DNA of 64,000 nt from an uncultured Bacteroidota bacterium (lineage in GTDB: Bacteria; Bacteroidota; Bacteroidia; Bacteroidales; GCA-2748055). This document shows, in pieces, positions 17,678 to 49,782 of this stretch. The position numbers and the translations under genes are program-made. Below the pieces are notes generated by a model, which did no database searches, was not told where the DNA came from, and worked only from the letters and a program-made list of their open reading frames with translations. The DNA lies in NCBI GenBank assembly GCA_963735755.1, contig CAVTME010000005.1:49585-113584 (forward strand), given 5' to 3'. The stretch's first letter is position 1; the number at the start of each line of letters is the position of its first letter.

Positions 17678-19066
17678 ATGGGACAAAAACAGGACGAGCT
17701 TCTCAAAAGAATTCAGAAACTGGTGAAACAAAACCAGGATTTGATAGATATGAATGAAAAGCTCCAGAAGGCGGTGAACGAGCTTTCTGAGCAGAATGAG
17801 ATGATGAAGCAGCGGCTGAAAGAGTCAAAGGTGGAGTTGAAAGACGGTGTATTCCAGGAGGGTGAGGACCGGGTAAGAAAATACAACATGGCCACTGTGC
17901 TCTTTGCCTACATCAGTGGTTTTAAACATCTCACAGATGCCATTGCGTCGGAGGTCATCATGGACCAGCTGGATGAAGTATTAATCGAGTTTGACCGGAT
18001 CCTGAAAAAATACAAGATACATAAGATCAAAACCATTGGGGATACCTATATGGCGGCCGGGGGTATTCCGGAGAAGAACATCACCAACCCCATTGATGTG
18101 ATCATGGCTGCGCTGGAGATGAATTTTTTCCTGAACCAGCTGAGACGGATTGATGGAAAAAGATACTGGAACCTGAGTCTGGGGATTCATACAGGCCCGG
18201 TTACGGCCAATGTATCAGGAAAGAAAAAGATCACATACGATATCAAGGGAGATACGGTGAATATTGCCCACCGCATGCAGGGTGTGGGTGACAGCGGAAA
18301 AATCCTGATCTCGGTGATGACCTATGAACTGATCAAAGAATTTTTCATATGTGAATACTATGGAAAAATGCCGGTCAAGTACAAGGGCGACCTGGAGATG
18401 TTTGTGGTCAATGGCATTCGGCCGGAGTTTTCGATGAAAGGAAGGGGATTGTTCCCCAATAAGCTGTTTGATACGAAATTTAAGCTGATCCAGTTTATGG
18501 ATATACAGGAGTTCATTCTGGATAAACTGGAGAACGAGTTGCCCGGGTACCTCTATTACCACAATGTCAAGCACACTGTGGATGTGGTTACCGAGGTTGA
18601 ATTGATAGGGTGGGCAGAAGGTCTTGATGATGACGGGATTCTCTTGCTGAAGACCGCTGCCTTGTTTCACGATGCAGGGCATACCATTGCCTATGATGAC
18701 CATGAATACCATGGAACCCTGATGGCCAAAGAACTTCTTCCTACCTATGGATACACCCAGGAGCAGATAGCGAAAATCTGTGATATCATCATGGCCACCA
18801 AACTTCCACCCAAACCAGAGGATATCTACCAGGAAATCATTTGCGATGCCGATCTGGATTACCTGGGGAGAAGCGATATGATCCCGGTTTCAAACACCCT
18901 CTATAAAGAGCTGAAGGAGCAGGAGAAGATTGGAACCCTCAATGATTGGAACAAACTACAGATCAAGTTTATTTCTGGCCATTCATACTTCACCAAGACG
19001 GCTCAGAGCCTCCGCGAGGTTAACAAGCAGAAGCAGATTGAACGCATCAGGAAGCTGATTACCTAA
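17678..19066 (+). CDS. Coiled-coil / class III nucleotidyl cyclase homology domain / HD-domain fusion protein
   Basis: N-terminal heptad-rich 60 aa. Cyclase motifs KIKTIGDTYMAAGG and YDIKGDTVNIAHRM. HD motifs HNVKHTVDV...LFHDAGH...CDADLDYLGR. Confidence 0.8.
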   Translation: MGQKQDELLKRIQKLVKQNQDLIDMNEKLQKAVNELSEQNEMMKQRLKESKVELKDGVFQEGEDRVRKYNMATVLFAYISGFKHLTDAIASEVIMDQLDEVLIEFDRILKKYKIHKIKTIGDTYMAAGGIPEKNITNPIDVIMAALEMNFFLNQLRRIDGKRYWNLSLGIHTGPVTANVSGKKKITYDIKGDTVNIAHRMQGVGDSGKILISVMTYELIKEFFICEYYGKMPVKYKGDLEMFVVNGIRPEFSMKGRGLFPNKLFDTKFKLIQFMDIQEFILDKLENELPGYLYYHNVKHTVDVVTEVELIGWAEGLDDDGILLLKTAALFHDAGHTIAYDDHEYHGTLMAKELLPTYGYTQEQIAKICDIIMATKLPPKPEDIYQEIICDADLDYLGRSDMIPVSNTLYKELKEQEKIGTLNDWNKLQIKFISGHSYFTKTAQSLREVNKQKQIERIRKLIT

Positions 19067-19957: not shown

Positions 19958-20762
19958 ATGAAGCGTCTGGTGTATTTGACCATATTTTTTCTGGCTGATC
20001 CCACTCCTGCCCGGGATTTCACAGGGTATTGGGAATGGAGAAGATGCTGGAGGTGACTGGGACCGGACACGGGTGATACTTGATTGTGCTCCCAGGCTGG
20101 TTGACAGGAGGGACCTGGTGGAAGATAACTTCGATCACCGTTATGTGACCAACAATCCCAGGGATATTGAAATGGGTTACTTTGCCGTAGAGCCCATGAC
20201 ATATTTGGAAAAGGGTAGAAGGTTTTGTGAAGCACTCTTGCCTGCATCAGGGGTGAGCCACTCCTATTTCCGGGGTTGCTATATGACCTCCTACTATCTT
20301 CCCGGAGATGGATTGTATGATGTAACCTTCATCTCCAACGCATTGATTTTTAACAATGAGCTGAAGATGATCAATTCACAGAATACAATTGCTGAGATTG
20401 ATGCTTCGCACCGGATGGAGATTGAGATTGACACCACGCTGAATACCCCTTCACCTGAAGATGTTACTTTCAAATCAAATGCAGCTTATGAATGGGACAT
20501 TGAGATTGACCAGTCAGGCGCCTGGCACGGAGAACTGCTTCCGGGTGACATTGTCCTGTATGATTCAGAACTGCCGGCTGGTTTTTCGCGGCTTGAAATA
20601 AAGAAAAGGGTACGGGGGCCAGGATTGATTACCATCAGGGAATCTGTCATATTCCGGGTGAATTCTGTCTCCTCATACAAGTATGACCCCATCTTCCAGG
20701 CAGTTTGTCTGTTCAGCCTTGAGCCGCTCAGTGTCTCCACAAGAGTGCTTCCATGTAAATAG
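19958..20762 (+). pseudogene. Hypothetical secreted protein, one frameshift near 20035
   Basis: ATG 19958 gives MKRLVYLTIFFLADPTPARDFTGYWEW. The next frame continues GEDAGGDWDRTRVILDCAPRLVDRRD... (ORF 20073..20762). No family recognised. Confidence 0.45.
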
Positions 20763-20779: not shown

Positions 20780-22318
20780 TTACCTGTCTGCTTTGTACAT
20801 TCCTTCGGGCTCTTCCCTTTGCAGAGAGGTTGCTCCTGTGGTTATCGTCACACTGTTTGCCTCATCAAATCCTACCTTCAGCGCATCCTTTCTTGCTACC
20901 TTCCATATTTTTCTGGGATTCAGTTTGATCCTGGCTGACGCAAATTCCGGTCGGTTAAAATTCAACAGGTAGTTTTCATAGAAATTCGGATCACGCTGGG
21001 GAGCAACAAATGCCTTGCTGGTCTTCCCCTCTTCATCCACATGACAAAAATAGATTTTCGATAAGAAGCTATCCTCCCTTTTACTCACAAACATAAGCCA
21101 TCTTCCGTTTTGCGACCAACTTGGATAGCTATCCACATCGTCGGAATTGCCTGCGATCTGTTCCAGCCTTCCTGAATCGAGCCGGTAGGTATAGATATCC
21201 GATTCCTTGTTGTAAATGGAGAAATAGCCATAATCAAGCAGGCAAAAGCTCAAGGTATTGTTATCTGCAGCAACACGCGGAAAGGAGATGCTTTTGTTTA
21301 TTTTCTCAGCATCCAGAATCGTATCCAATTTCCCGAAGGATTTGGTCTCTGCATCAAATTCTATACAGCACAAACTGTATTTCAAATCTTGATAAAAGCT
21401 GTTGTCCGTCGCTTTTGGAGCGCAAATGAAATAAAGCCGTTTACCATCCGGCGACCATGTGGGTAGATTCTCCCTTGCCCCGGTGGCAAGTTCTTCCGGA
21501 CGGGTAATGATGTTGTTTTCCACATCGTACAGGACAATGTCTGAATATTTATCTCCCACATAGGCCACTTTATCCTTGCTTGAGTGGAAATCCTGGTTGA
21601 TCCGGTTTACCGAAAAGGCTATAAATTTCCCGGACGGATGCCATGAAGGGTATGCACCTGCACTACCCATATGATCACTTTTGGTATCAATGATTTTCAG
21701 TTCATCGTCGTATTTGATCACAGTCCCTCCATATTTGGCCCGCATATGCAACAGGAAGCGATCAGGATTGAAAGCGCTGAAGCTGTGGCAGTTCATGCAA
21801 TTATAGTCGGTGAAGCTATTGACAGAAATGGGATCTGTATCCAGGGTTTCGAGAGAGTGTTGAAAGATGCCCATTTCATTCCACAGCACATTGGCTGGAG
21901 GTATTTTCCGGTATACGACCATCTCATCGATTGGATCACCGCTGATGGCGTTGGCAATGGTTTGATATTTATGCCAGATATTCTGCTCATCCTTCCTGAA
22001 CAGGTCAATAAATAAGGTGTCACCTCTATTTTCAGCAATCAGTTGTTCCCATTTGCGATGGGGTATAATGATTTGCTTCTTATTGGATTGGAGCCAGATC
22101 GATTTGTTTCTGGTGTAGACATGTGATTTAAATGCTTTTCCCTCATCCCGGATGACAAAATGCATGGGCCCGATATTATAAGGTATGGTAATGTTTGCAT
22201 AATCGGGGTAAATGCTGGCTACTTCTTCTGTAGTCCGGAATTCTTTCACCTCTTTTTGACAGGAGGAAAGCATCCCTACAATGAGGCCCAGGGAAATGTA
22301 GATATGTCGCTTACTCAT
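20780..22318 (-). CDS. Lipoprotein with CXXCH motif and TolB/PD40-like beta-propeller
   Basis: Start at MSKRHIYISLGLIVGMLSSC (lipobox). CMNCH at nt 21785-21799. PD40-like strands YPSWHPSGKFIAFS, LPTWSPDGKRLYFI, YPSWSQNGRWLMFVS. The ORF-track N-terminal extension to 22486 overlaps the upstream gene. Confidence 0.7.
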   Translation of the reverse strand: MSKRHIYISLGLIVGMLSSCQKEVKEFRTTEEVASIYPDYANITIPYNIGPMHFVIRDEGKAFKSHVYTRNKSIWLQSNKKQIIIPHRKWEQLIAENRGDTLFIDLFRKDEQNIWHKYQTIANAISGDPIDEMVVYRKIPPANVLWNEMGIFQHSLETLDTDPISVNSFTDYNCMNCHSFSAFNPDRFLLHMRAKYGGTVIKYDDELKIIDTKSDHMGSAGAYPSWHPSGKFIAFSVNRINQDFHSSKDKVAYVGDKYSDIVLYDVENNIITRPEELATGARENLPTWSPDGKRLYFICAPKATDNSFYQDLKYSLCCIEFDAETKSFGKLDTILDAEKINKSISFPRVAADNNTLSFCLLDYGYFSIYNKESDIYTYRLDSGRLEQIAGNSDDVDSYPSWSQNGRWLMFVSKREDSFLSKIYFCHVDEEGKTSKAFVAPQRDPNFYENYLLNFNRPEFASARIKLNPRKIWKVARKDALKVGFDEANSVTITTGATSLQREEPEGMYKADR

Positions 22319-22322
22319 CAGG

Positions 22323-24149
22323 CTATTGCTTTGCTGCATTTGATATTTTACTGGAATACATGACGTAATACCAGTAGGTGTGACTGTAGTGTTGCACGGC
22401 ATTTCTTGCCTGGGGGATACCCCCCGCTTTCTGCACAGTGATGGAGAAGTCCCGAAAGTCCTGCTGCGCTTCTTTGCTGATCTCAAAGCCTGCTAAGTCT
22501 AAATCCTGTTCACTGGAAAGTCCCAGATAAAGAAGTACCGCCTCTTCTACCAACCTCGGCAACCGGGTATAGCCCAACTGCCTGAATGTCTTGATCTCAT
22601 GTGCGATATTCCCCACTTTATGAGTGATCAGGTAATTGGCAATCAGGTACTCAAATGCCATTTTGTTTTGGGGATTATTCAGGTAGAAGCGTTTCAGCTT
22701 ATTTTCGGGCCGTGCCAGACCGGTAAAGAAATCCCTCTCGGGAAAGTTATTTCGAATCCACTGAACCTCCTCATTTGTCTCTCCATGCAACAGGCCTGCA
22801 TGATCTTTGACCCATTGCCTGTGCGCTATGGATTGATTGAGCACATTCAGGTATCTTGCGGCGATCACCGGCTGATCTGCAGCAGCGTAGTTGATGATCA
22901 GGCATTTCAGTGTGTTTGGTTTGTTGCCCCTGGCAATAAGTGCCTCATTGGCAAAATGTCGCGATTCATTTCCATATCCCATTTTGAGGTAGAAATCGGC
23001 TTTCGGTTGCGCAATGGTTCCATCAGTGGAACCATCCAGAAAGAGCCCTTCAATGCCTGATGTTTGGGGATACTGGAGGAGTTTGTCAAGCAAGACCCCC
23101 TGGTGGTAAAGGGCCCGGTTGATTTGAAAGTGCAGCAATTTGGAGTTAAAGTTCTGAAAGTGCAAAGCATTCTTAAGCACCCCCTGCCAGTTCTCCGCAT
23201 GGGCGAAAACCTCAATTTGATAGATCTCTTTTTTCTTCTCATCAAAGGAGAAAGAAAAAACTGCTGCTGATAGCAAAAGTGGAAGTCCAAATTGCAGCAA
23301 GCCATGTACTACCTTTTTTCCAGTTGTTTTGCTTTGCCGGTCCATGCTGTTTTCTGTCCTTCGAAGCAGCATGATGAGCAACGGAATACCAACATAGATG
23401 GCATAGGCTGCAGGTTTCACCTTTTGGTAAAGCGTAGGAACAAATGCATCGCAATAGGCCTGCTGAAAGGTAAAATTCAAACCAAAGATCATGCTGAGTG
23501 CCGGTATGGTCGGAACCAGCAATAAATAGAACAGTTTCTGTTGTTTGGGTAAGGAAGGATGGATGATCAATATTAGAGAGGAAAGATAGAATCCGGGTGT
23601 TCCGAACAGGTAGTAAATCAGTAAAAGGAAAGCTGCTATGGGTACCCATCTGGCACTCCTGAAATACCTGGATACAAAAGTGGCGAATGCGAGCAGGTAA
23701 GTACTGAAAAGAATGCTGCTTGTGAGTTTGAACGAAAAGGCATATTCAAAAAGGGGAAGCAGAAGAAAGAGTGAAATTGTAAAAATGGCTGCCGGAAAAT
23801 AAGGGTGGCGCTGAAGTTTGCTGAACAAGTATTGCAGCGAGAGGAAGAACAGTCCGGCCATCATCGATAGAACCAGGATTCCGGCTGTTTTGAAATTGAA
23901 TAAGGAGATGATATGCATGGCCAGCACATCGTTGATTCCACCAATGCGCTGAAAACCTTCACCGAATGTTTCCGGAACGATCTCCTGCATATAGCAGATA
24001 ATGCCGGGGTCCAGGCTCCGCAACAGAAAAACGGCAAAACCCAACAAGATGATCAGGGCATAGATTGGCTGGACTTTTATTTCAGGTTTTAATCTCATGG
24101 CATGGGGTAAATCCGGAGATAAAAGTAGAAAATATTGCCTTATCGGCAA
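22323..24149 (-). CDS. Polytopic inner-membrane protein with large C-terminal soluble domain (DUF6057-like, from memory)
   Basis: About 10 hydrophobic segments in the first 300 aa, then a roughly 300-aa helical soluble domain. Alternative start ATG 24098 (MRLKPEIK). The stop lies 4 nt before the next gene's start. Confidence 0.6.
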   Translation of the reverse strand: MPIRQYFLLLSPDLPHAMRLKPEIKVQPIYALIILLGFAVFLLRSLDPGIICYMQEIVPETFGEGFQRIGGINDVLAMHIISLFNFKTAGILVLSMMAGLFFLSLQYLFSKLQRHPYFPAAIFTISLFLLLPLFEYAFSFKLTSSILFSTYLLAFATFVSRYFRSARWVPIAAFLLLIYYLFGTPGFYLSSLILIIHPSLPKQQKLFYLLLVPTIPALSMIFGLNFTFQQAYCDAFVPTLYQKVKPAAYAIYVGIPLLIMLLRRTENSMDRQSKTTGKKVVHGLLQFGLPLLLSAAVFSFSFDEKKKEIYQIEVFAHAENWQGVLKNALHFQNFNSKLLHFQINRALYHQGVLLDKLLQYPQTSGIEGLFLDGSTDGTIAQPKADFYLKMGYGNESRHFANEALIARGNKPNTLKCLIINYAAADQPVIAARYLNVLNQSIAHRQWVKDHAGLLHGETNEEVQWIRNNFPERDFFTGLARPENKLKRFYLNNPQNKMAFEYLIANYLITHKVGNIAHEIKTFRQLGYTRLPRLVEEAVLLYLGLSSEQDLDLAGFEISKEAQQDFRDFSITVQKAGGIPQARNAVQHYSHTYWYYVMYSSKISNAAKQ

Positions 24150-24173
24150 ATCAGCAGAAAAGGCTGCTGAGAT

Positions 24174-25012: not shown

Positions 25013-26010
25013 TTATGAATCCAGACTGTTGTAATAGTTAAATACCCTTATCAATCCGGCATCATCATTGATCTTGATCTTTTCCGACCTGATGAACCTT
25101 TCAATCTCCTCCGCATGGTCAGCGAATAGCTTACGGATGCTCTTTTTCCGCTTTTTCAGAAGGACCACCTCGGCGCCCTCCGATTGCTGGTAATAGAGCT
25201 GCCGGTACTGAACAAAGGCATCAGCCCCTCCCGCCCAGTTGTAGGTAACTGGTCCGCTGCCAGCCTTGATCTTTACATCATGACGCATCAATAATTTGCA
25301 TCCGCCTTCATTGAGGACCTGGAAGTATGCTGATCCCAGATAAGGCCGGCGGCTGCTTCTTTTCACATACAAACCATGCAGGAATTTCATGTTGCTGATG
25401 GAGATACGCTTCACATTGAAGGGGGCCGAAATGGCAAAAGTATCATTGTTGTAGACCATCTCAAATTCCTGGGCATAAAGGTTGTATCTGAAAAGTCCGT
25501 TGATGTTGAAGAATTCATTGATCTCTGCCTCATATTCTCCCTTCAGTTTCTCGAGATAGTCACGCAGGTTATTTTCCAGCATTTCAGTGATTCCTGGAAT
25601 GCCTTCAAAATCACTGTTGGAAATCCGCAGGTCATAGTCCGGATTTTTTGTCCGGATCAATTCCTTCCATCTCAAGTGCAAGGCCTGCAGCCTCAAAATC
25701 AGGATCAGAAAGTTTCTTGATGAGGGCATCGATCTTGCTTATTTTTGCCTGGTACTCGCGCACTTTTGCCTTTTCCTTCTTTTCCTGTGCGATCTGATTG
25801 GCGATTTCACTTTTCATTTCCAGGGTCCCGTACATCCAGGTTTCAGACAGATAGGGAGAACCTGCTATCTCATAGTTGGCTTCGGCCCCTCCGCTGAGCA
25901 AAAATGAACCGCTGAAAGATCCACCAATATTGACGTTCTGCACCTGGGAGTTGGTGTAGTGACAACAGGCCCAGACCAAGTAACAACCATGAAAACTGCT
26001 GCTTACGCAT
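25013..26010 (-). pseudogene. Hypothetical secreted protein, 2 frame changes (T6 run on the plus strand at 25644-25649, and about 25975)
   Basis: ATG 26010 gives MRKQQFSWLLLGLGLL (signal). Then ...NVNIGGSFSGSFLLSGGAEANYEIAGSPYLSETWMYGTLEMK...(coiled-coil)...DPDK, then NPDYDLRISNSDFEGIPG...FRYNLYAQEFEMVY.... ORFs 25632..25979 and 25013..25729 are fragments. Confidence 0.5.
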
Positions 26011-26110
26011 ACATCGGACTTATTAGCTGTAAGAGTTTTCAGGCTGCAAATTTAATAATTGTTATTCCAGATATCCAGAGGGATGGAAAAAATGCAATAT
26101 ATTAGTAGAG

Positions 26111-27646
26111 ATGAACATTTTAACGCTATTGATCAGGGATTGTCATTTTCTGAAGGTGATTGTAGTAAGCATCGCTGCTTTTTCTGCTTATCTCCCTCCG
26201 GCATAAAGGGCCAGAATCTGGATGGAAAGATTGTTATACCCGAGAGCTTTCCGGTGGCCTACATCCATATCACACAGATTGAAATTACAGGGAACGCCAG
26301 AACAAAGGAGAAGATCATCACCAGAGAGTTGGATTTCAGCCTGGGAGACAGCCTGGCACTTTGACGATGCCCTGGCAAAAACAGCCATGTTCAGCCAGAA
26401 GCGTATTAGCCGGAACGATTCCAGTGAGGTGGTCAAGACGAATGAAATACAGCCGGGAGAATATCATCAACACCCAGCTTTTCCTGTCGGTTGACCTGCG
26501 TCTTGAGCAGGCAGAGGGTGATGACTATACATTGAAGATTGATGTGAAGGAACGTTGGTACTTCTGGGTGTTTCCTGTGGTGAAGCTGGATCATCCCAAC
26601 TTCAACGACTGGCTCCAGGATCCGGATCTGGACCAGGTGAATATGGGACTGTTTACAAGCCATAACAACCTGTGGGGATTGAGCCACCAGGCATCAGCGG
26701 TGGCATATTGGGGAAGTTCACAAAGTTTGGTCTGGGTTACAAAATACCCTGGATTGGTAGTGGCCAGAAGATCGGGATGGTCATTGGGGGCGCTTATAGG
26801 AATTCGGCAGTGGTGGAGTATGCATCCGTGGACAATGAGAGGCAAATGATCTATGACAAGGGCAGTGTAAAGGAGATTTTTTCGACACAACACCTTTACC
26901 TTCAGGCCCGGGCTTTACAATTATGGAAAAATAAGGATGGATCGCCGGAAATGTCAGCCTTTCAGATTCCTTATTCAGCCTGACCCAGGAGTATTTGCCG
27001 GACAATAAGAGTACAGTTAGTTTCGTCAACTTCTATGCGGAATATGCCTATGATTCCCGTAACAACCGGGCTTATCCGCTCAATGGGAATTACTTAAAGG
27101 GTTTTGTGGACAAGCGCGGGTATGGGGATTATTTCCCACGATGTGGACTATTTCTATTATGGTGCTGATCTTCACTTCTACCAGCAAATCAGTGACAGAT
27201 GGTATGCGGCTGAGATGACAAAACTGGTGAGTTCATCCAGTGAGAATATACCTTATTATTTCCAGCAGAGCCTTACCTCAAGCGACGATTTCATCCGTGG
27301 ATTTGACTATTATGCCCTCAGTGGCGACGCAGATGTATTATTTCAGGAGCAACCTGAAATACAATGTGATCAAGCCAGGGATTATGGAGGCCACGGAAGG
27401 AGAAGAACAAGGATAGCAAATTCAGGAATGTGCCCTATGCCTTCTATATGAACCTGCTTGCAGATGTGGCCTATGTGGTGGATGAATTTCCATGGAGATA
27501 TGAATCCATACAACAACAAAATGCTTTATTCCTGGGGGCTCGGCGTGGATTTCATCAGCTACTATGACCTGGTCCTGAGGTTTGAATATGCCTTTACCAA
27601 CATCGGCACCCACGGTTTCTTTTTTGGATTCGGGATGCCTATTTAA
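26111..27646 (+). pseudogene. BamA/Omp85-family outer-membrane protein (POTRA + surface-antigen barrel), about 10 frame changes
   Basis: MNILTLLIRDCHFLKVIVVSIAAFSAYLPPA (signal). POTRA ITQIEITGNARTKEKIITRELDFSLGDSLA. ...RENIINTQLFLSVDLRLEQAEGDDYTLKIDVKERWYF. Barrel strands in several frames (FYAEYAYDSRNNRAYPLNGNYLKGF; YYFRSNLKYNVIKPG). Ends WGLGVDFISYYDLVLRFEYAFTNIGTHGFFFGFGMPI. Confidence 0.7.
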
Positions 27647-27770
27647 GCAAAGGGAATACCGATCCTGATCTCCTGTTTGTATTGTTTCTAAAAAAGGATT
27701 GGTTTCTGTACAGACAACCTTTATCTCTTATCTTTGGTCCCTAATAAATTCCGGAACTGAAAACAGATAT

Positions 27771-30314
27771 ATGATGAAGCTTCCCGCCAAGAAAGCCAGT
27801 CTGCTCTGGCTCTTTTCTCTTACATCAGCATGGCTCCTTTCCCAGGTACCCGAGGGAGGTACCATGCTCAACTCCGAAACAGGGACCACCTACCAGAAGG
27901 TTGGTTCTTGTACGGTCACACAGGTGGATGTTGAAGGCCAGGATTTTACAAAGGCCATCAGGGTCCAGGTGCGCGACAATGTTTCCAATGCCTGGGATGC
28001 CCAGCTGAAATTCCCTGCTGTAGCGGGAGTGTCGGAAACAGATGTGGTACTTGTGGCCTTTTTTGCCCGGACCATCGAGTCGGAAGAGGAGACAGGGGAA
28101 GGATTTCTAACAGTAGTAATTGAGCACAATGTGTCTTACGCAAAGGAGATATCTCATAAAATATCCATTGGTAGTGAGTGGAGGGAGTACTACGCCCCGG
28201 CTGAAGTTGCACATGATCTGGCAACATCCGAGGTGAGCTACCTGTTCCATATGGGCTACCCCAACCAGGTGGTGGAGGTGGCCGATGTCCGTTTCCTCAA
28301 TTATTTTTCTACCCTTGATCTGGAAGATCTGCCCGAGACGGAAATCACCTATGTGGGCCGTGCCCCGGATGCCCCCTGGCGCGCTCCTGCAGAAGAGCGC
28401 ATCGCTCAGTACAGGAAAGGATTGGCAGAAATTACCATTTACGATGCAGAGGGAATGCCGGTGAACGCAGCAGATGTGAAAATTCAGATGCAGCGTCACC
28501 AGTTTGGATTCGGAACAGCTGTTACGGCAAGCAACATTGTCAACAATAAAGTCTACAGGGATACCCTGTTCGATATTTTCAATGAGGTGGTATTTGAGAA
28601 CGATTTGAAGTGGCCACCCTTTGAAAACAGTTCAACCCACGGTCGCATTCTTAGCGCCCTGGATACCCTGGATGCCCATAAGGTTCCTGTCAGGGGGCAC
28701 AACATCATCTGGCCGGCATACAAATATATGCCTGATTTTATGGAGGATCTTTCCGGCGACCCTGAGCAAATGAGATTGGAGATTGATAAACGCTTCGATG
28801 AAGTGACAGCATTCACCAAAGGCCGTTTAAACGATTGGGATGTGATGAATGAACCCTATACGGAGCATGATGTTCAGGACATACTTGGAGATGAGGTGAT
28901 GGCCGACTGGTTCCGACGAACCCGGCGCAATGATCCTGGAGTGAAGCTTTACATCAATGACTATTATATCCTCAGCGGAGGCGGCATTAATAAGACAAAG
29001 CAGGATTATTACTACGACCTGATTGAGTATATTGATGAACGGGGTGGCCGGATTGACGGCATCGGAATGCAGGGTCATTTCAGCACAGACCTGACCTCCA
29101 TTACCAGGGTCTATGATATTCTGGACAGGTTTGCGGAGCTGGGCAAGGATATTAAAATCACGGAACATGATATTGCCATCACCCAGCGGGATGTGCAGGC
29201 TGACTATACCCGTGATTTTATGACCATTGTATTCAGCCACCCTTCGGTAAAGTCCATTCTCGCGTGGGGATTCTGGGCTGGTGCCCACTGGAAACCCGAT
29301 GCTGCGTATTTTGATAAAGATTGGAATATCCTGCCACACGGGGAAGTTTGGCGGGATCTGATCAAGAAGCAGTGGTGGACCCCGGCCATGGATACGGTTT
29401 CAGATGAAAACGGAAAGTACAGTTTTGAGGGATTTCTGGGAAGCTATTCCTACACCGTTCAGGTTGGCGATACCCTGAGGAAAGGTTTCTTTACCCTGGA
29501 GCATTCCAGGCAGAGTGGTGTAACAAATTCCATCATCATCTCCCTGGATGGTTCCATTCCTGAATCTGTTCAGGTCACCCCGGATCAGGAGGGCTTTATT
29601 TGTGAAGGTGAAGAGATGACCCTTCGTGCACCGGAGGAAGAGGGATTTGCCTATGCCTGGACCCTGGAGGGGCTGCCCCTTCCGGATACAACAGCTTCCA
29701 TCGTAGCAGTGGATTCAGGATCTTACCGGGTGACGGTGTCAAAACTTGGCGTCTCACTCACATCTGAGCCTTACTTCCTGGAGGTAATCGCCATTCCTTC
29801 CACACCGGTCTTAGTGGCTGATGGAGAACTGGAAGTTTGTGCCGGTGAAGCTGTCACCATCTCCCTGGATGGAATTCCGGATATTCAATCCGATTATGAA
29901 TGGTATCTTGACGGTGAGCGGGTACAATGGGGCGGTTCTTCCTATGATGCTGGTAAAACCGGGGAATACACCCTGAAAACTACCGACATCGGATGCGCCT
30001 CGATCTCGGAACCTGTATCTGTAAGCATTCTTCCCGAATCAGATTCCCGCTGCACCCTTGGAATGGAGGTGGATGAATCCAGCTCACGCATCTTTCCCAA
30101 CCCATGTAAGGGTTTAGTGCAGGTCGAACTGACAGGAGGGACAGGTACCGGACATGAGGTGGCCTTATACGATGTTATGGGACGACGGAGACAATCCGTA
30201 CTGACTGAACCGGGTACGAAACAGTTGACACTTTCTGTACCCGATCCTGGAATCTATATGGTGAAGATCATCCAGGGAACACATGTACAGACCCATAAAC
30301 TGGTTTCGGAGTAG
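27771..30314 (+). CDS. GH10 endo-beta-1,4-xylanase-type enzyme with N-terminal CBM-like domain, Ig-like repeats and T9SS C-terminal domain
   Basis: Start at MMKLPAKKASLLWLFSLTSAWLLSQ. GH10 hallmarks WDVMNEP (acid/base) and ITEHDI (nucleophile). C-terminal RIFPNPCKGLVQVEL...GIYMVKI sorting domain. Confidence 0.8.
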   Translation: MMKLPAKKASLLWLFSLTSAWLLSQVPEGGTMLNSETGTTYQKVGSCTVTQVDVEGQDFTKAIRVQVRDNVSNAWDAQLKFPAVAGVSETDVVLVAFFARTIESEEETGEGFLTVVIEHNVSYAKEISHKISIGSEWREYYAPAEVAHDLATSEVSYLFHMGYPNQVVEVADVRFLNYFSTLDLEDLPETEITYVGRAPDAPWRAPAEERIAQYRKGLAEITIYDAEGMPVNAADVKIQMQRHQFGFGTAVTASNIVNNKVYRDTLFDIFNEVVFENDLKWPPFENSSTHGRILSALDTLDAHKVPVRGHNIIWPAYKYMPDFMEDLSGDPEQMRLEIDKRFDEVTAFTKGRLNDWDVMNEPYTEHDVQDILGDEVMADWFRRTRRNDPGVKLYINDYYILSGGGINKTKQDYYYDLIEYIDERGGRIDGIGMQGHFSTDLTSITRVYDILDRFAELGKDIKITEHDIAITQRDVQADYTRDFMTIVFSHPSVKSILAWGFWAGAHWKPDAAYFDKDWNILPHGEVWRDLIKKQWWTPAMDTVSDENGKYSFEGFLGSYSYTVQVGDTLRKGFFTLEHSRQSGVTNSIIISLDGSIPESVQVTPDQEGFICEGEEMTLRAPEEEGFAYAWTLEGLPLPDTTASIVAVDSGSYRVTVSKLGVSLTSEPYFLEVIAIPSTPVLVADGELEVCAGEAVTISLDGIPDIQSDYEWYLDGERVQWGGSSYDAGKTGEYTLKTTDIGCASISEPVSVSILPESDSRCTLGMEVDESSSRIFPNPCKGLVQVELTGGTGTGHEVALYDVMGRRRQSVLTEPGTKQLTLSVPDPGIYMVKIIQGTHVQTHKLVSE

Positions 30315-48738: not shown

Positions 48739-49782
48739 ATGAAAAGAAGAAATTTTATTCAGCAATCCGCCGTTGCCGGGGCACTCCTAACACCCGGATC
48801 AGCTACATTGTTGGCAAACAGCAAGGCCAGTGACAATTCTGACGTGCCAGGTAAAGTGAAAAATGCCATGCTCAGCATGCAAAGGGCCTCCTGGGAACAG
48901 GGGATTGCTGCGCAGGCAATCCTGGAGATGGGTGATGCCGATATGGCCTATCTGATGGCCAAAGAAGCAGCCCTGCGGCAAACAAAGGAGGGGCGGCTCT
49001 CTGTTTTATACACTGACAATGGCGTGACCGATCCTGCTGCTTCAGGCGAAGTTGTGTTTCGAATGGCAGAAAAGAGCGGAGATCCGGAACTTGCAGAAGC
49101 ACATCAGAAGATGGTAGCTTACCTGCTCAAGGAAGCCCCCAGGACAGACGATGGTACACTTCACCACACCCTGAATTCTCCCGAGATTTGGATTGACTCC
49201 ATCTATATGGCACCTCCCTATTTATGCGTGGCGGGGCATCCGAAGGAGTGCATCCGGCAGATTGAAGGTATTCGGAAGCTTCTATATGATCCGGATAAGA
49301 ATCTGTATTCTCATCAATGGCACGATGGAAATAAAGCATTGATCAGGAAGGACTATTGGGGTGTGGGGAATGGCTGGGCAATGGCCAGCATGGCGCGTGT
49401 GATTGATGATCTACCTGCTGAAATGAAAGCTGAGAAAAATCTTCTGGAGGATTATGCAAGGAAAAACATCGATGGGTGTTTGCCCTTTCTGCGTACAGAC
49501 GGACTGTTTCACGATGTGATTGATGATGGTGATTCCTTTATAGAAACCAACCTGTCACAAATGATGGCCTATGCCATATTCAGGGGTATTAAATCAGGAT
49601 GGTTGTCAGATGATTACCTTACTGTTGCCCTCAGGATGAGACAGGCAGCACATTCCATGGTGGATGAGCATGGATTTGTCCAGGGGGTATGCGGGGCACC
49701 CTTTTTTAACAGCCCGGGCAGGGCCACCGAAGGTCAGGCCTTCTTCCTGTTGATGGAAGCGGCCCATGCAAGGCTTTCTTAA
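48739..49782 (+). CDS. Tat-signal glycosyl hydrolase family 88/105 (unsaturated glucuronyl/rhamnogalacturonyl hydrolase-like)
   Basis: MKRRNFIQQSAVAGALLTPGSATLLA (twin-arginine). WIDSIYMAPPYL and YWGVGNGWAM motifs typical of GH88/GH105. Confidence 0.7.
   Translation: MKRRNFIQQSAVAGALLTPGSATLLANSKASDNSDVPGKVKNAMLSMQRASWEQGIAAQAILEMGDADMAYLMAKEAALRQTKEGRLSVLYTDNGVTDPAASGEVVFRMAEKSGDPELAEAHQKMVAYLLKEAPRTDDGTLHHTLNSPEIWIDSIYMAPPYLCVAGHPKECIRQIEGIRKLLYDPDKNLYSHQWHDGNKALIRKDYWGVGNGWAMASMARVIDDLPAEMKAEKNLLEDYARKNIDGCLPFLRTDGLFHDVIDDGDSFIETNLSQMMAYAIFRGIKSGWLSDDYLTVALRMRQAAHSMVDEHGFVQGVCGAPFFNSPGRATEGQAFFLLMEAAHARLS

Follow-up and report, generated by a model that had tools for sequence, protein, structure and literature searches.

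The 64,000-nucleotide stretch of DNA analysed here (referred to below as the window; positions 49,585 to 113,584 of contig CAVTME010000005.1, from an uncultured Bacteroidota bacterium) encodes on its minus strand two adjacent genes, one for a polytopic membrane protein of the DUF6057 family and the other for a TolB-like beta-propeller lipoprotein that carries a CXXCH motif of the c-type heme attachment type. The two genes form a near-obligate, co-evolving pair, and as a system this pair fits no described kind.

The two genes form a near-obligate, co-evolving pair

We scanned 158 loci, comprising 79 genome loci found with the lipoprotein and 79 metagenome loci found with DUF6057. Starting from the lipoprotein, DUF6057 is adjacent and on the same strand in 74/79 genome loci; four of the five loci without it are cut by a contig end, and a single one (L071) truly lacks it. 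Starting from DUF6057, a CXXCH propeller is adjacent in 72 of the 79 metagenome loci, with six of the seven exceptions again cut by a contig end and only L103 truly without the propeller. A preliminary description of this DNA, made by a model from the letters of the window, had named co-occurrence of the two genes elsewhere as a check, and the association proves far tighter than was guessed there. DUF6057 precedes the propeller in 135 of the 150 adjacent pairs (the order is reversed in the other 15), with an approximate median intergenic gap of ~18 nt across those 135. Pairwise-identity matrices computed for each protein are correlated at r = 0.82, compared with a maximum of 0.09 in 500 permutations, and the membrane protein evolves faster, at a mean identity of 25% versus 41% for the lipoprotein. 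Tandem arrays of two or three pairs are also seen, and a Planctomycete-like locus has the pair as well, with a transmembrane anchor replacing the lipobox. Clustering of the flanking open reading frames (ORFs) across the 158 loci yielded no third conserved gene beside the pair.

The pair is widespread and carries no functional annotation. A profile scan with one genome per species detected lipoprotein relatives in at least 584 species, with carriers that include Bacteroidales, Prolixibacteraceae, Parabacteroides distasonis, P. faecalis, Draconibacterium, Dysgonomonas, Odoribacter, KSB1, and Calditrichaeota, while DUF6057 comprises ~6,000 clusters at 50% identity and is described in its Pfam entry as of unknown function. 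The loci closest to the window come from metagenome-assembled genomes of Bacteroidales, which, together with the type IX secretion tail on a nearby GH10 enzyme, points to a host within that order; the genome of the closest relative holds three copies. Database entries carry labels such as "PD40 domain-containing protein," "hypothetical protein," or "DUF6057 family protein"; full-text searching found no paper in the searched library on DUF6057/PF19529 or on CXXCH-bearing PD40/TolB-like propellers, and neither protein was placed in a characterised family by Pfam or NCBIfam or matched a sequence relative in the PDB.

In the window, both ORFs lie where the preliminary description had placed them (minus strand, 22323-24149 and 20780-22486 in the ORF list). 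The DUF6057 frame is open back to TTG 24149, which gives the 608-aa form reported there; an independent gene call on an identical contig gives 591 aa from ATG 24098 (and 512 aa for the lipoprotein), and we consider ATG 24098 the likelier start. On that basis the DUF6057 gene occupies 22323..24098 (-) and ends in a TAG codon at 22325-22323, followed by a spacer of 4 nt (CCTG, 22319..22322, -), exactly the gap that had been claimed, and by the ATG at 22318 of the 512-aa lipoprotein gene (20780..22318, -).

The CXXCH motif is invariant across the lipoprotein family

The heme attachment-type motif of the lipoprotein, CMNCH (residues 174-178; 21785..21799, -), is its sole CXXCH. It had been assigned to an N-terminal domain; the motif is indeed single, but in the structural model it sits in a hairpin at the start of the propeller. 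Exactly one C..CH is present in 119 of the 120 best homologues, and the remaining one is an N-terminally truncated fragment. We assessed conservation over 259 non-redundant full-length homologues (database matches together with proteins translated from the 158 fetched loci) that share 29-72% identity with the window protein. Across this set C174, C177, H178, and R193 are 100% conserved, followed by H227 (98%), N176 (97%), and H191 (~89%), and the motif varies only as C[MVILFYA][NH]CH. Since C..CH is kept in 259/259 homologues at such identities, the CXXCH is not a chance occurrence, and conservation among orthologues, which had been named as a check, is complete.

H191 and R193 belong to the tripeptide H191-M192-R193 (21740..21748, -). 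In the AlphaFold2 (AF2) model, computed without ligand, the CXXCH opens a strand (residues 174-181) with a predicted local distance difference test (pLDDT) score of ~83, which pairs with a second strand (184-193) bearing H191 and R193. A distal His or Met ligand had been suggested; H191 is the obvious candidate, but it is lost in the Planctomycete-like branch, where it is Gly in one member, and in the sister family described below. We also considered a catalytic Cys-His-Asn arrangement of C174, H191, and N176, which is weakened by the fact that H191 is not universal.

The lipoprotein has a TolB-like fold and is predicted to be periplasmic

The lipoprotein begins with MSKRHIYISLGLIVGMLSSC, a predicted signal peptide ending at the lipobox residue Cys20, the putative site of lipidation (22259..22318, -). 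A lipobox-type Cys at the end of the hydrophobic region is found in most homologues and an uncleaved anchor in a few. No acidic cluster follows the Cys in the window protein, and the mean D/E count at positions +2 to +6 across homologues is 0.39. Acidic residues after the Cys constitute the lipoprotein export signal of Bacteroidota, and their scarcity here suggests that the lipoprotein stays in the periplasm.

The mature protein comprises an N-terminal beta-rich domain (residues 27-126; 21941..22240, -), delimited by alignments and AF2 secondary structure, and a PD40 beta-propeller (residues ~130-480; 20879..21931, -), recognised by Pfam PD40 repeats, AF2, Foldseek, and the alignment, followed by a low-confidence C-terminal tail (20783..20878, -). 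The N-terminal domain carries a near-invariant motif, PDY...IPxNIAPLNF, the end of which reads NIGPMHF in the window protein. Within the propeller, the sequence W226-H227-P228 places the conserved H227 in the position of the Ser of the usual PD40 WSPDG turn. In the tail, pLDDT falls to 32-40 over the final ~12 residues, after ~70 before them; a motif [ST]G[AP][ST] occurs there in 123/204 homologues (~60%), as TTGATS in the window protein and elsewhere as, e.g., ALSGATKI, and could be a TPR-docking peptide.

The full AF2 model (pLDDT 88.3; predicted template modelling score, pTM, 0.87) shows the N-domain, a propeller extending to residue ~480, and the low-confidence tail. Its top Foldseek matches in the PDB are TolB chains (E 1e-13 to 2e-12 over ~390 columns, with target-normalised TM-scores of 0.52-0.55), so that the modelled fold is TolB-like, as had been claimed; acylaminoacyl peptidase and tricorn propellers follow, and precomputed Tricorn_N and Tricorn_2nd matches also fall on the propeller. 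At the sequence level, the protein scores 38 bits against the TolB model TIGR02800 (cut-off 343.15) and 26.6 against NF002183 (cut-off 405). It reaches no curated family cut-off in Pfam or NCBIfam, where only PD40 repeats are recognised, and no solved relative was found among PDB sequences, including with a family profile.

At three positions where the family is otherwise 97-98% conserved, the window protein and its two nearest relatives carry a different residue (A50G, N53H, and R154H/Q); these three proteins appear to form a divergent sub-clade.

DUF6057 joins a membrane domain to a TPR-like helical domain

The membrane protein is a clear member of DUF6057, a family to which the preliminary description had correctly pointed: it matches PF19529 with E 3e-75 and 254.6 bits (gathering cut-off 29.8) over residues 60-598 of the 608-aa form, and all 31 aligned relatives match the same entry. 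The AF2 model (pLDDT 86.2, pTM 0.85) is all-helical, with membrane helices between residues 5 and 284 and then ~305 residues of helical repeats. This agrees with the ~300-aa helical domain claimed earlier; the ~10 transmembrane segments claimed with it are reduced to 8-9 hydrophobic helices by hydropathy and AF2. We accordingly divide the protein into a membrane domain (residues 1-285; 23244..24098, -) and a C-terminal helical domain (residues 286-591; 22326..23243, -) that is TPR-like by weak matches to the Pfam families TPR_19, TPR_16, and TPR_14 in 7-10 of the 31 members and by weak Foldseek similarity to TPR and other helical-repeat proteins.

In an alignment of 322 sequences, nearly all conserved DUF6057 residues lie in the TPR-like domain (W304, A329-L330, Q345, G374, E385, R449, N478, the AFEYL segment at 481-485, P514, E519-A520, Y575, and Y578). 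In the membrane part only P52/G53/G54, Q65, G73, Y162, and P239 reach at least 85%, the first three forming a P-G-G motif in predicted periplasmic loop 1. No acidic residue of that loop is invariant in the same alignment (the best are D30 at 59% and D57 at 67%). Over residues 1-290, His never reaches 50% in any column (maximum 48%, position 36), Trp exceeds 40% only at positions 25 (53%) and 71 (62%), and the alignment shows neither a conserved Cys nor a Trp-rich loop in the membrane part. Comparison of residues 1-147 with 148-290 by hhalign gave no internal repeat. A Foldseek search of the PDB returned no fold match at E <= 1e-3, the 50 matches listed being TPR and other helical-repeat proteins; no sequence relative was found in the PDB, even with a profile, and a homologue search using the alignment added nothing beyond the same 34 proteins.

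K/R-rich loops recur across the family at the N-terminus and at residues 92-100, 144-150, 180-186, and 246-262. Placing all of them in the cytoplasm puts the C-terminal domain in the periplasm, which is probably its true location as judged from this charge pattern. Such a topology requires segment 151-179 to dip into the membrane and return to the side from which it came, and the centre of this segment is Gly/Pro-rich (GTPG in the window protein).

One DUF6057 representative (P0221, 1279 aa) has an FtsX/MacB-like permease half fused at its N-terminus. An error of gene calling or assembly could explain this fusion; a genuine one would be in keeping with a cytoplasmic N-terminus of DUF6057.

A sister family fuses a CXXCH propeller to a TPR array

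Three loci contain, beside a DUF6057 pair, a gene of a sister family in which both elements are found in one chain: L123 (759 aa; L123:9458-11734), L065 (945 aa; L065:6850-9684, -), and L132 (truncated; L132:5910-7319). These proteins consist of an anchor, the same N-domain, the motif C[AG]NCHSF, a PD40 propeller, and a canonical C-terminal TPR array. Over the first 510 residues they can be aligned with the lipoprotein family (hhalign probability 99.65%), with the CXXCH in register; H191, R193, and H227 are not kept. This architecture shows a CXXCH propeller cooperating with a TPR element on the exported side. Because the sister family joins the two, it lends indirect support to docking of the lipoprotein on DUF6057.

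A proposed mechanism and its alternatives

We propose that the two proteins make up a self-contained envelope complex in which DUF6057 docks a heme c-bearing propeller. As a whole package we hold this tentatively, as falling a little short of evenly balanced. DUF6057 would reside in the inner membrane with its N-terminus in the cytoplasm, and its TPR-like C-domain, most likely periplasmic, would provide the docking platform by which the propeller is held at the membrane. The lipoprotein would be periplasmic and would carry one covalent c-type heme on the invariant CXXCH, attached by the System II cytochrome c maturation machinery of the host, with H178 as proximal ligand and R193 probably holding a heme propionate. 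The complex would work at the heme-bearing face of the propeller, where it would act on or sense a periplasmic redox-active substrate. Established are the near-obligate and co-evolving gene pair, the invariant motif, the TolB-like fold of the lipoprotein, and the concentration of DUF6057 conservation in the TPR-like domain; this concentration, the weak TPR matches, and the sister family speak for docking. We infer heme attachment, a physical interaction of the two proteins, the location of the TPR domain in the periplasm, and any redox role. Taken by itself, covalent attachment of heme c at the CXXCH is a claim that we favour, if narrowly. More ambitiously, the pair might represent a new class of membrane-tethered periplasmic hemoprotein, with a c-type heme in a PD40 blade without a cytochrome domain, working only with a cofactor-less DUF6057. 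In the envelope of anaerobic Bacteroidota the two genes would then make up a previously unrecognised unit for redox reactions or redox sensing, perhaps linked to quinol in the style of NrfD; this extended version is speculative and we regard it as unlikely. Parabacteroides, a carrier of the pair, can mature cytochromes c, because it has membrane NrfA complexes (PMC4257093).

Several observations weigh against the heme-bearing complex. Heme c sites typically lie in a helical turn, whereas AF2 sets the CXXCH in a beta-strand, and in a regular strand C174 and C177 would face opposite sides. The lipoprotein has no match to a cytochrome c family (Pfam at E <= 0.1; NCBIfam). A universal distal ligand is lacking, given that H191 stands at ~89% and that the sister family keeps neither H191 nor H227. 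DUF6057 has no conserved cofactor His or Cys, so that a visible electron path to the quinone pool is absent. Redox or cytochrome maturation genes are not enriched near the pair in the scanned loci, and no cytochrome c maturation gene was noted in the examined parts of the window. As to docking and topology, no specific homology was detected between the TPR array of the sister family and the C-domain of DUF6057 (probability 7.5%), and AF2 draws segment 151-179 as one continuous 29-residue helix, which yields eight crossings and a cytoplasmic TPR-like domain.

Many of these same points would be expected if the lipoprotein were instead a non-heme, TolB-like scaffold, whose Cys/Cys/His/Arg cluster binds another metal or is structural and whose role lies in tethering or organising the envelope without redox chemistry (compare TolB with TolA and CpoB). 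The motif lies in an ordinary PD40 hairpin strand in the AF2 model, no cytochrome c hidden Markov model matches, the top structural match is TolB, DUF6057 has no cofactor-type residues, and the candidate distal ligands are not universal. Against such a scaffold stands a His immediately after the second Cys in 259/259 homologues and the sister family, which is the signature of heme c and not of a CXXC metal knuckle; the Arg two residues past position 191, invariant in the 259 homologues, fits propionate binding; Tol-Pal genes are not linked; and the TIGR02800 score of 38 bits compares with a cut-off of 343. We treat this explanation as unlikely, though deserving of serious attention. A proteolysis or quality-control module, in which the propeller filters substrates and the TPR domain serves as adaptor for an S41 protease (as in tricorn, NlpI-Prc, and LbcA-CtpA), appears improbable. 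Support for it comes from Phycisphaerales-like loci in which an S41 gene follows DUF6057 (L082 reads propeller, DUF6057, S41), as well as from the Tricorn_N and Tricorn_2nd matches and the Foldseek similarity to acylaminoacyl peptidases and tricorn; but the S41 gene is confined to the L081-L083 clade and the 158 scanned loci are without a homologue, the peptidase-type matches amount to generic propeller similarity, and the invariant CXXCH is left unexplained.

The remaining explanations concern chiefly the membrane protein. The preliminary description took it for a GT-C-like or transporter-like module. On such a reading DUF6057 would transfer glycosyl or lipid groups as a GT-C-type enzyme, or would act as a transporter, and the propeller would be its periplasmic substrate-handling partner. 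Some GT-C enzymes do bear TPR domains, with a polytopic membrane domain followed by a soluble TPR domain, and the overall layout of DUF6057 recalls them as a matter of general knowledge, not of a search match; loop 1 also has two acidic residues of moderate conservation, D30 (59%) and D57 (67%). Yet none of 31 members has a Pfam match to such families, even at E <= 5, and the PDB offers no fold match at E <= 1e-3, the 50 matches listed being TPR and other helical-repeat proteins. Loop 1 is without an invariant acidic residue, the membrane core is without a conserved charged residue or an internal repeat, and no conserved glycan or lipid-carrier genes lie nearby, all of which makes this assignment very unlikely. 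We give equally little credence to a quinol-linked redox module, in which DUF6057 would be an NrfD/PsrC-type subunit that oxidises menaquinol near the periplasmic surface and passes electrons to the lipoprotein heme. A cofactor-less protein of 8-9 helices obligately paired with a putative periplasmic hemoprotein would suit this role, as would the conserved polar residues Q65, Y119, and Y162 in the membrane part; against it, there is no NrfD-family Pfam match, no NrfD-like structure among the 50 Foldseek matches listed, and no linked terminal reductase, and a single heme carries one electron only. The earlier characterisation of the locus as an undescribed envelope system thus stands with respect to the conserved two-gene unit, for which we found no literature, and is not supported with respect to the GT-C/transporter label and to the upstream hypothetical genes discussed below.

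Relation to known systems

The nearest structural counterpart is TolB (TIGR02800; PDB 2hqs, 1c5k, and 7mx5), which likewise consists of a small N-domain and a PD40 propeller in the periplasm and is paired with an inner-membrane protein, TolA, as the lipoprotein is with DUF6057. Unlike TolB, the lipoprotein is predicted to be lipid-anchored, has an invariant CXXCH, and has DUF6057 for a partner; tolQ, tolR, tolA, and pal are not conserved beside it in the 158 loci, and it misses the TolB model cut-off. Cytochrome cd1 nitrite reductase and the quinohemoprotein dehydrogenases also combine a CXXCH heme with a periplasmic propeller, and PDB 1aom is among the weaker Foldseek matches of the lipoprotein (E 3e-6). 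In those enzymes, however, heme c occupies a separate alpha-helical cytochrome domain and the propeller holds a second cofactor, whereas the lipoprotein has no cytochrome domain and its motif lies in a modelled propeller hairpin. With c-type cytochromes in general it shares the conserved CXXCH and export, but not a recognisable cytochrome c domain.

The CcmF/CcmI, NrfE/NrfG, and CcsBA systems similarly place a polytopic protein and a TPR-type domain beside a CXXCH protein. Unlike CcmF and CcsBA, DUF6057 has no WWD-type Trp-rich loop, no conserved membrane His, and no Cytochrom_C_asm match; we rejected a dedicated heme lyase of the CcmF/CcmI kind on the first two of these grounds. NlpI-Prc, LbcA-CtpA, and tricorn resemble the pair in their TPR and propeller elements and, for one clade, in the presence of an S41 gene. 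In the pair, however, a polytopic membrane domain carries the TPR domain in the same chain, a CXXCH lies in the propeller, and the S41 gene is not general. As for the Pfam entry PF19529 itself, we did not find its pairing with a CXXCH propeller recorded.

Carriers of the pair include culturable and genetically tractable gut bacteria such as Parabacteroides distasonis, and the obligate partnership between DUF6057 and the propeller gives both families a testable hypothesis. Should a heme be present, covalent heme c would be found in a novel structural setting, and a novel function would be added to the envelope of anaerobic Bacteroidota and their neighbours; if none is present, the invariant Cys/Cys/His/Arg cluster would still mark an active or binding site in a TolB-like scaffold.

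Genomic neighbourhood of the pair

The region 5' of DUF6057 (24099..24173, -) reads as a hairpin followed by promoter-like elements. The hairpin, TCAGCAG-N6-CTGCTGA at 24170-24151, lies between DUF6057 and the gene for a 276-aa protein upstream. Bacteroides promoters have a consensus of -33/-7 elements, and TTTG (24150-24147) together with TACTTTTA (24127-24120) resembles them and may be the promoter of a separate two-gene transcript. Because both features fall between the 276-aa gene and DUF6057, DUF6057 and the lipoprotein would be transcribed apart from that gene. The 276-aa protein and a 238-aa one, both secreted hypotheticals upstream, had been counted among the components of the system; outside the window they are found in the closest relative (L001) and in 0/78 other genome loci. 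In that relative, the 238-like and 276-like genes are tandemly duplicated (L001:2685-6143), and they are single in the window.

Other neighbours recur in subsets of loci. SusC/SusD genes are found in ~20/79 genome loci, and an FkbO/Hyg5-like chorismatase-RidA fusion lies beside the pair in 19/79 genome loci (e.g., L021:4872-6065) and in 9 metagenome loci. We rejected both as components: neither is universal, and lineage synteny, or simply the abundance of such genes in Bacteroidota, could account for their presence. Phycisphaerales-like loci have a Peptidase_S41 gene after DUF6057: in L082:6426-11877 the order is a CLNCH propeller with a transmembrane anchor, DUF6057, and S41, while in L081:4977-11177 an MG2 (alpha-2-macroglobulin-like) gene precedes DUF6057. 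The S41 peptidase was likewise rejected as a third component on the clade restriction given above, and the window has no S41 gene near the pair. One locus (L044) has a single multi-heme cytochrome-like neighbour, and another (L116) has one small di-CXXCH ORF. A role in anti-phage defence was set aside because PADLOC gave no match for either protein.

Several genes around the pair in the window show irregularities of their own. The gene upstream of that for the 276-aa protein (25016-25949, -) is split into 25949-25656 and 25639-25016 in different frames, and its intact counterpart is a 357-aa ORF in the closest relative (L001:4254-5324), so that the split gene is either a frameshifted pseudogene or an assembly indel. 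Farther on, four short ORFs of 101, 162, 103, and 115 aa run in shifting frames across 26059-27451 (+). None of the four has a Pfam match; the first reads like a POTRA segment (ITQIEITGNARTKEKIITRELDF), and together they may be a disrupted Omp85/BamA-like gene. On the other side of the pair, a convergent gene without a Pfam match (19959-20762, +) abuts the lipoprotein stop; its start is uncertain, as an outside gene call gives 267 aa, against 229 aa from a GTG in the ORF list. Beyond these lie two ordinary neighbours with no relation to the pair: one (17678-19066, +) joins an adenylate/guanylate cyclase domain to an HD domain, and the other (27699-30314, +) is a GH10 xylanase carrying a C-terminal sorting domain for type IX secretion.

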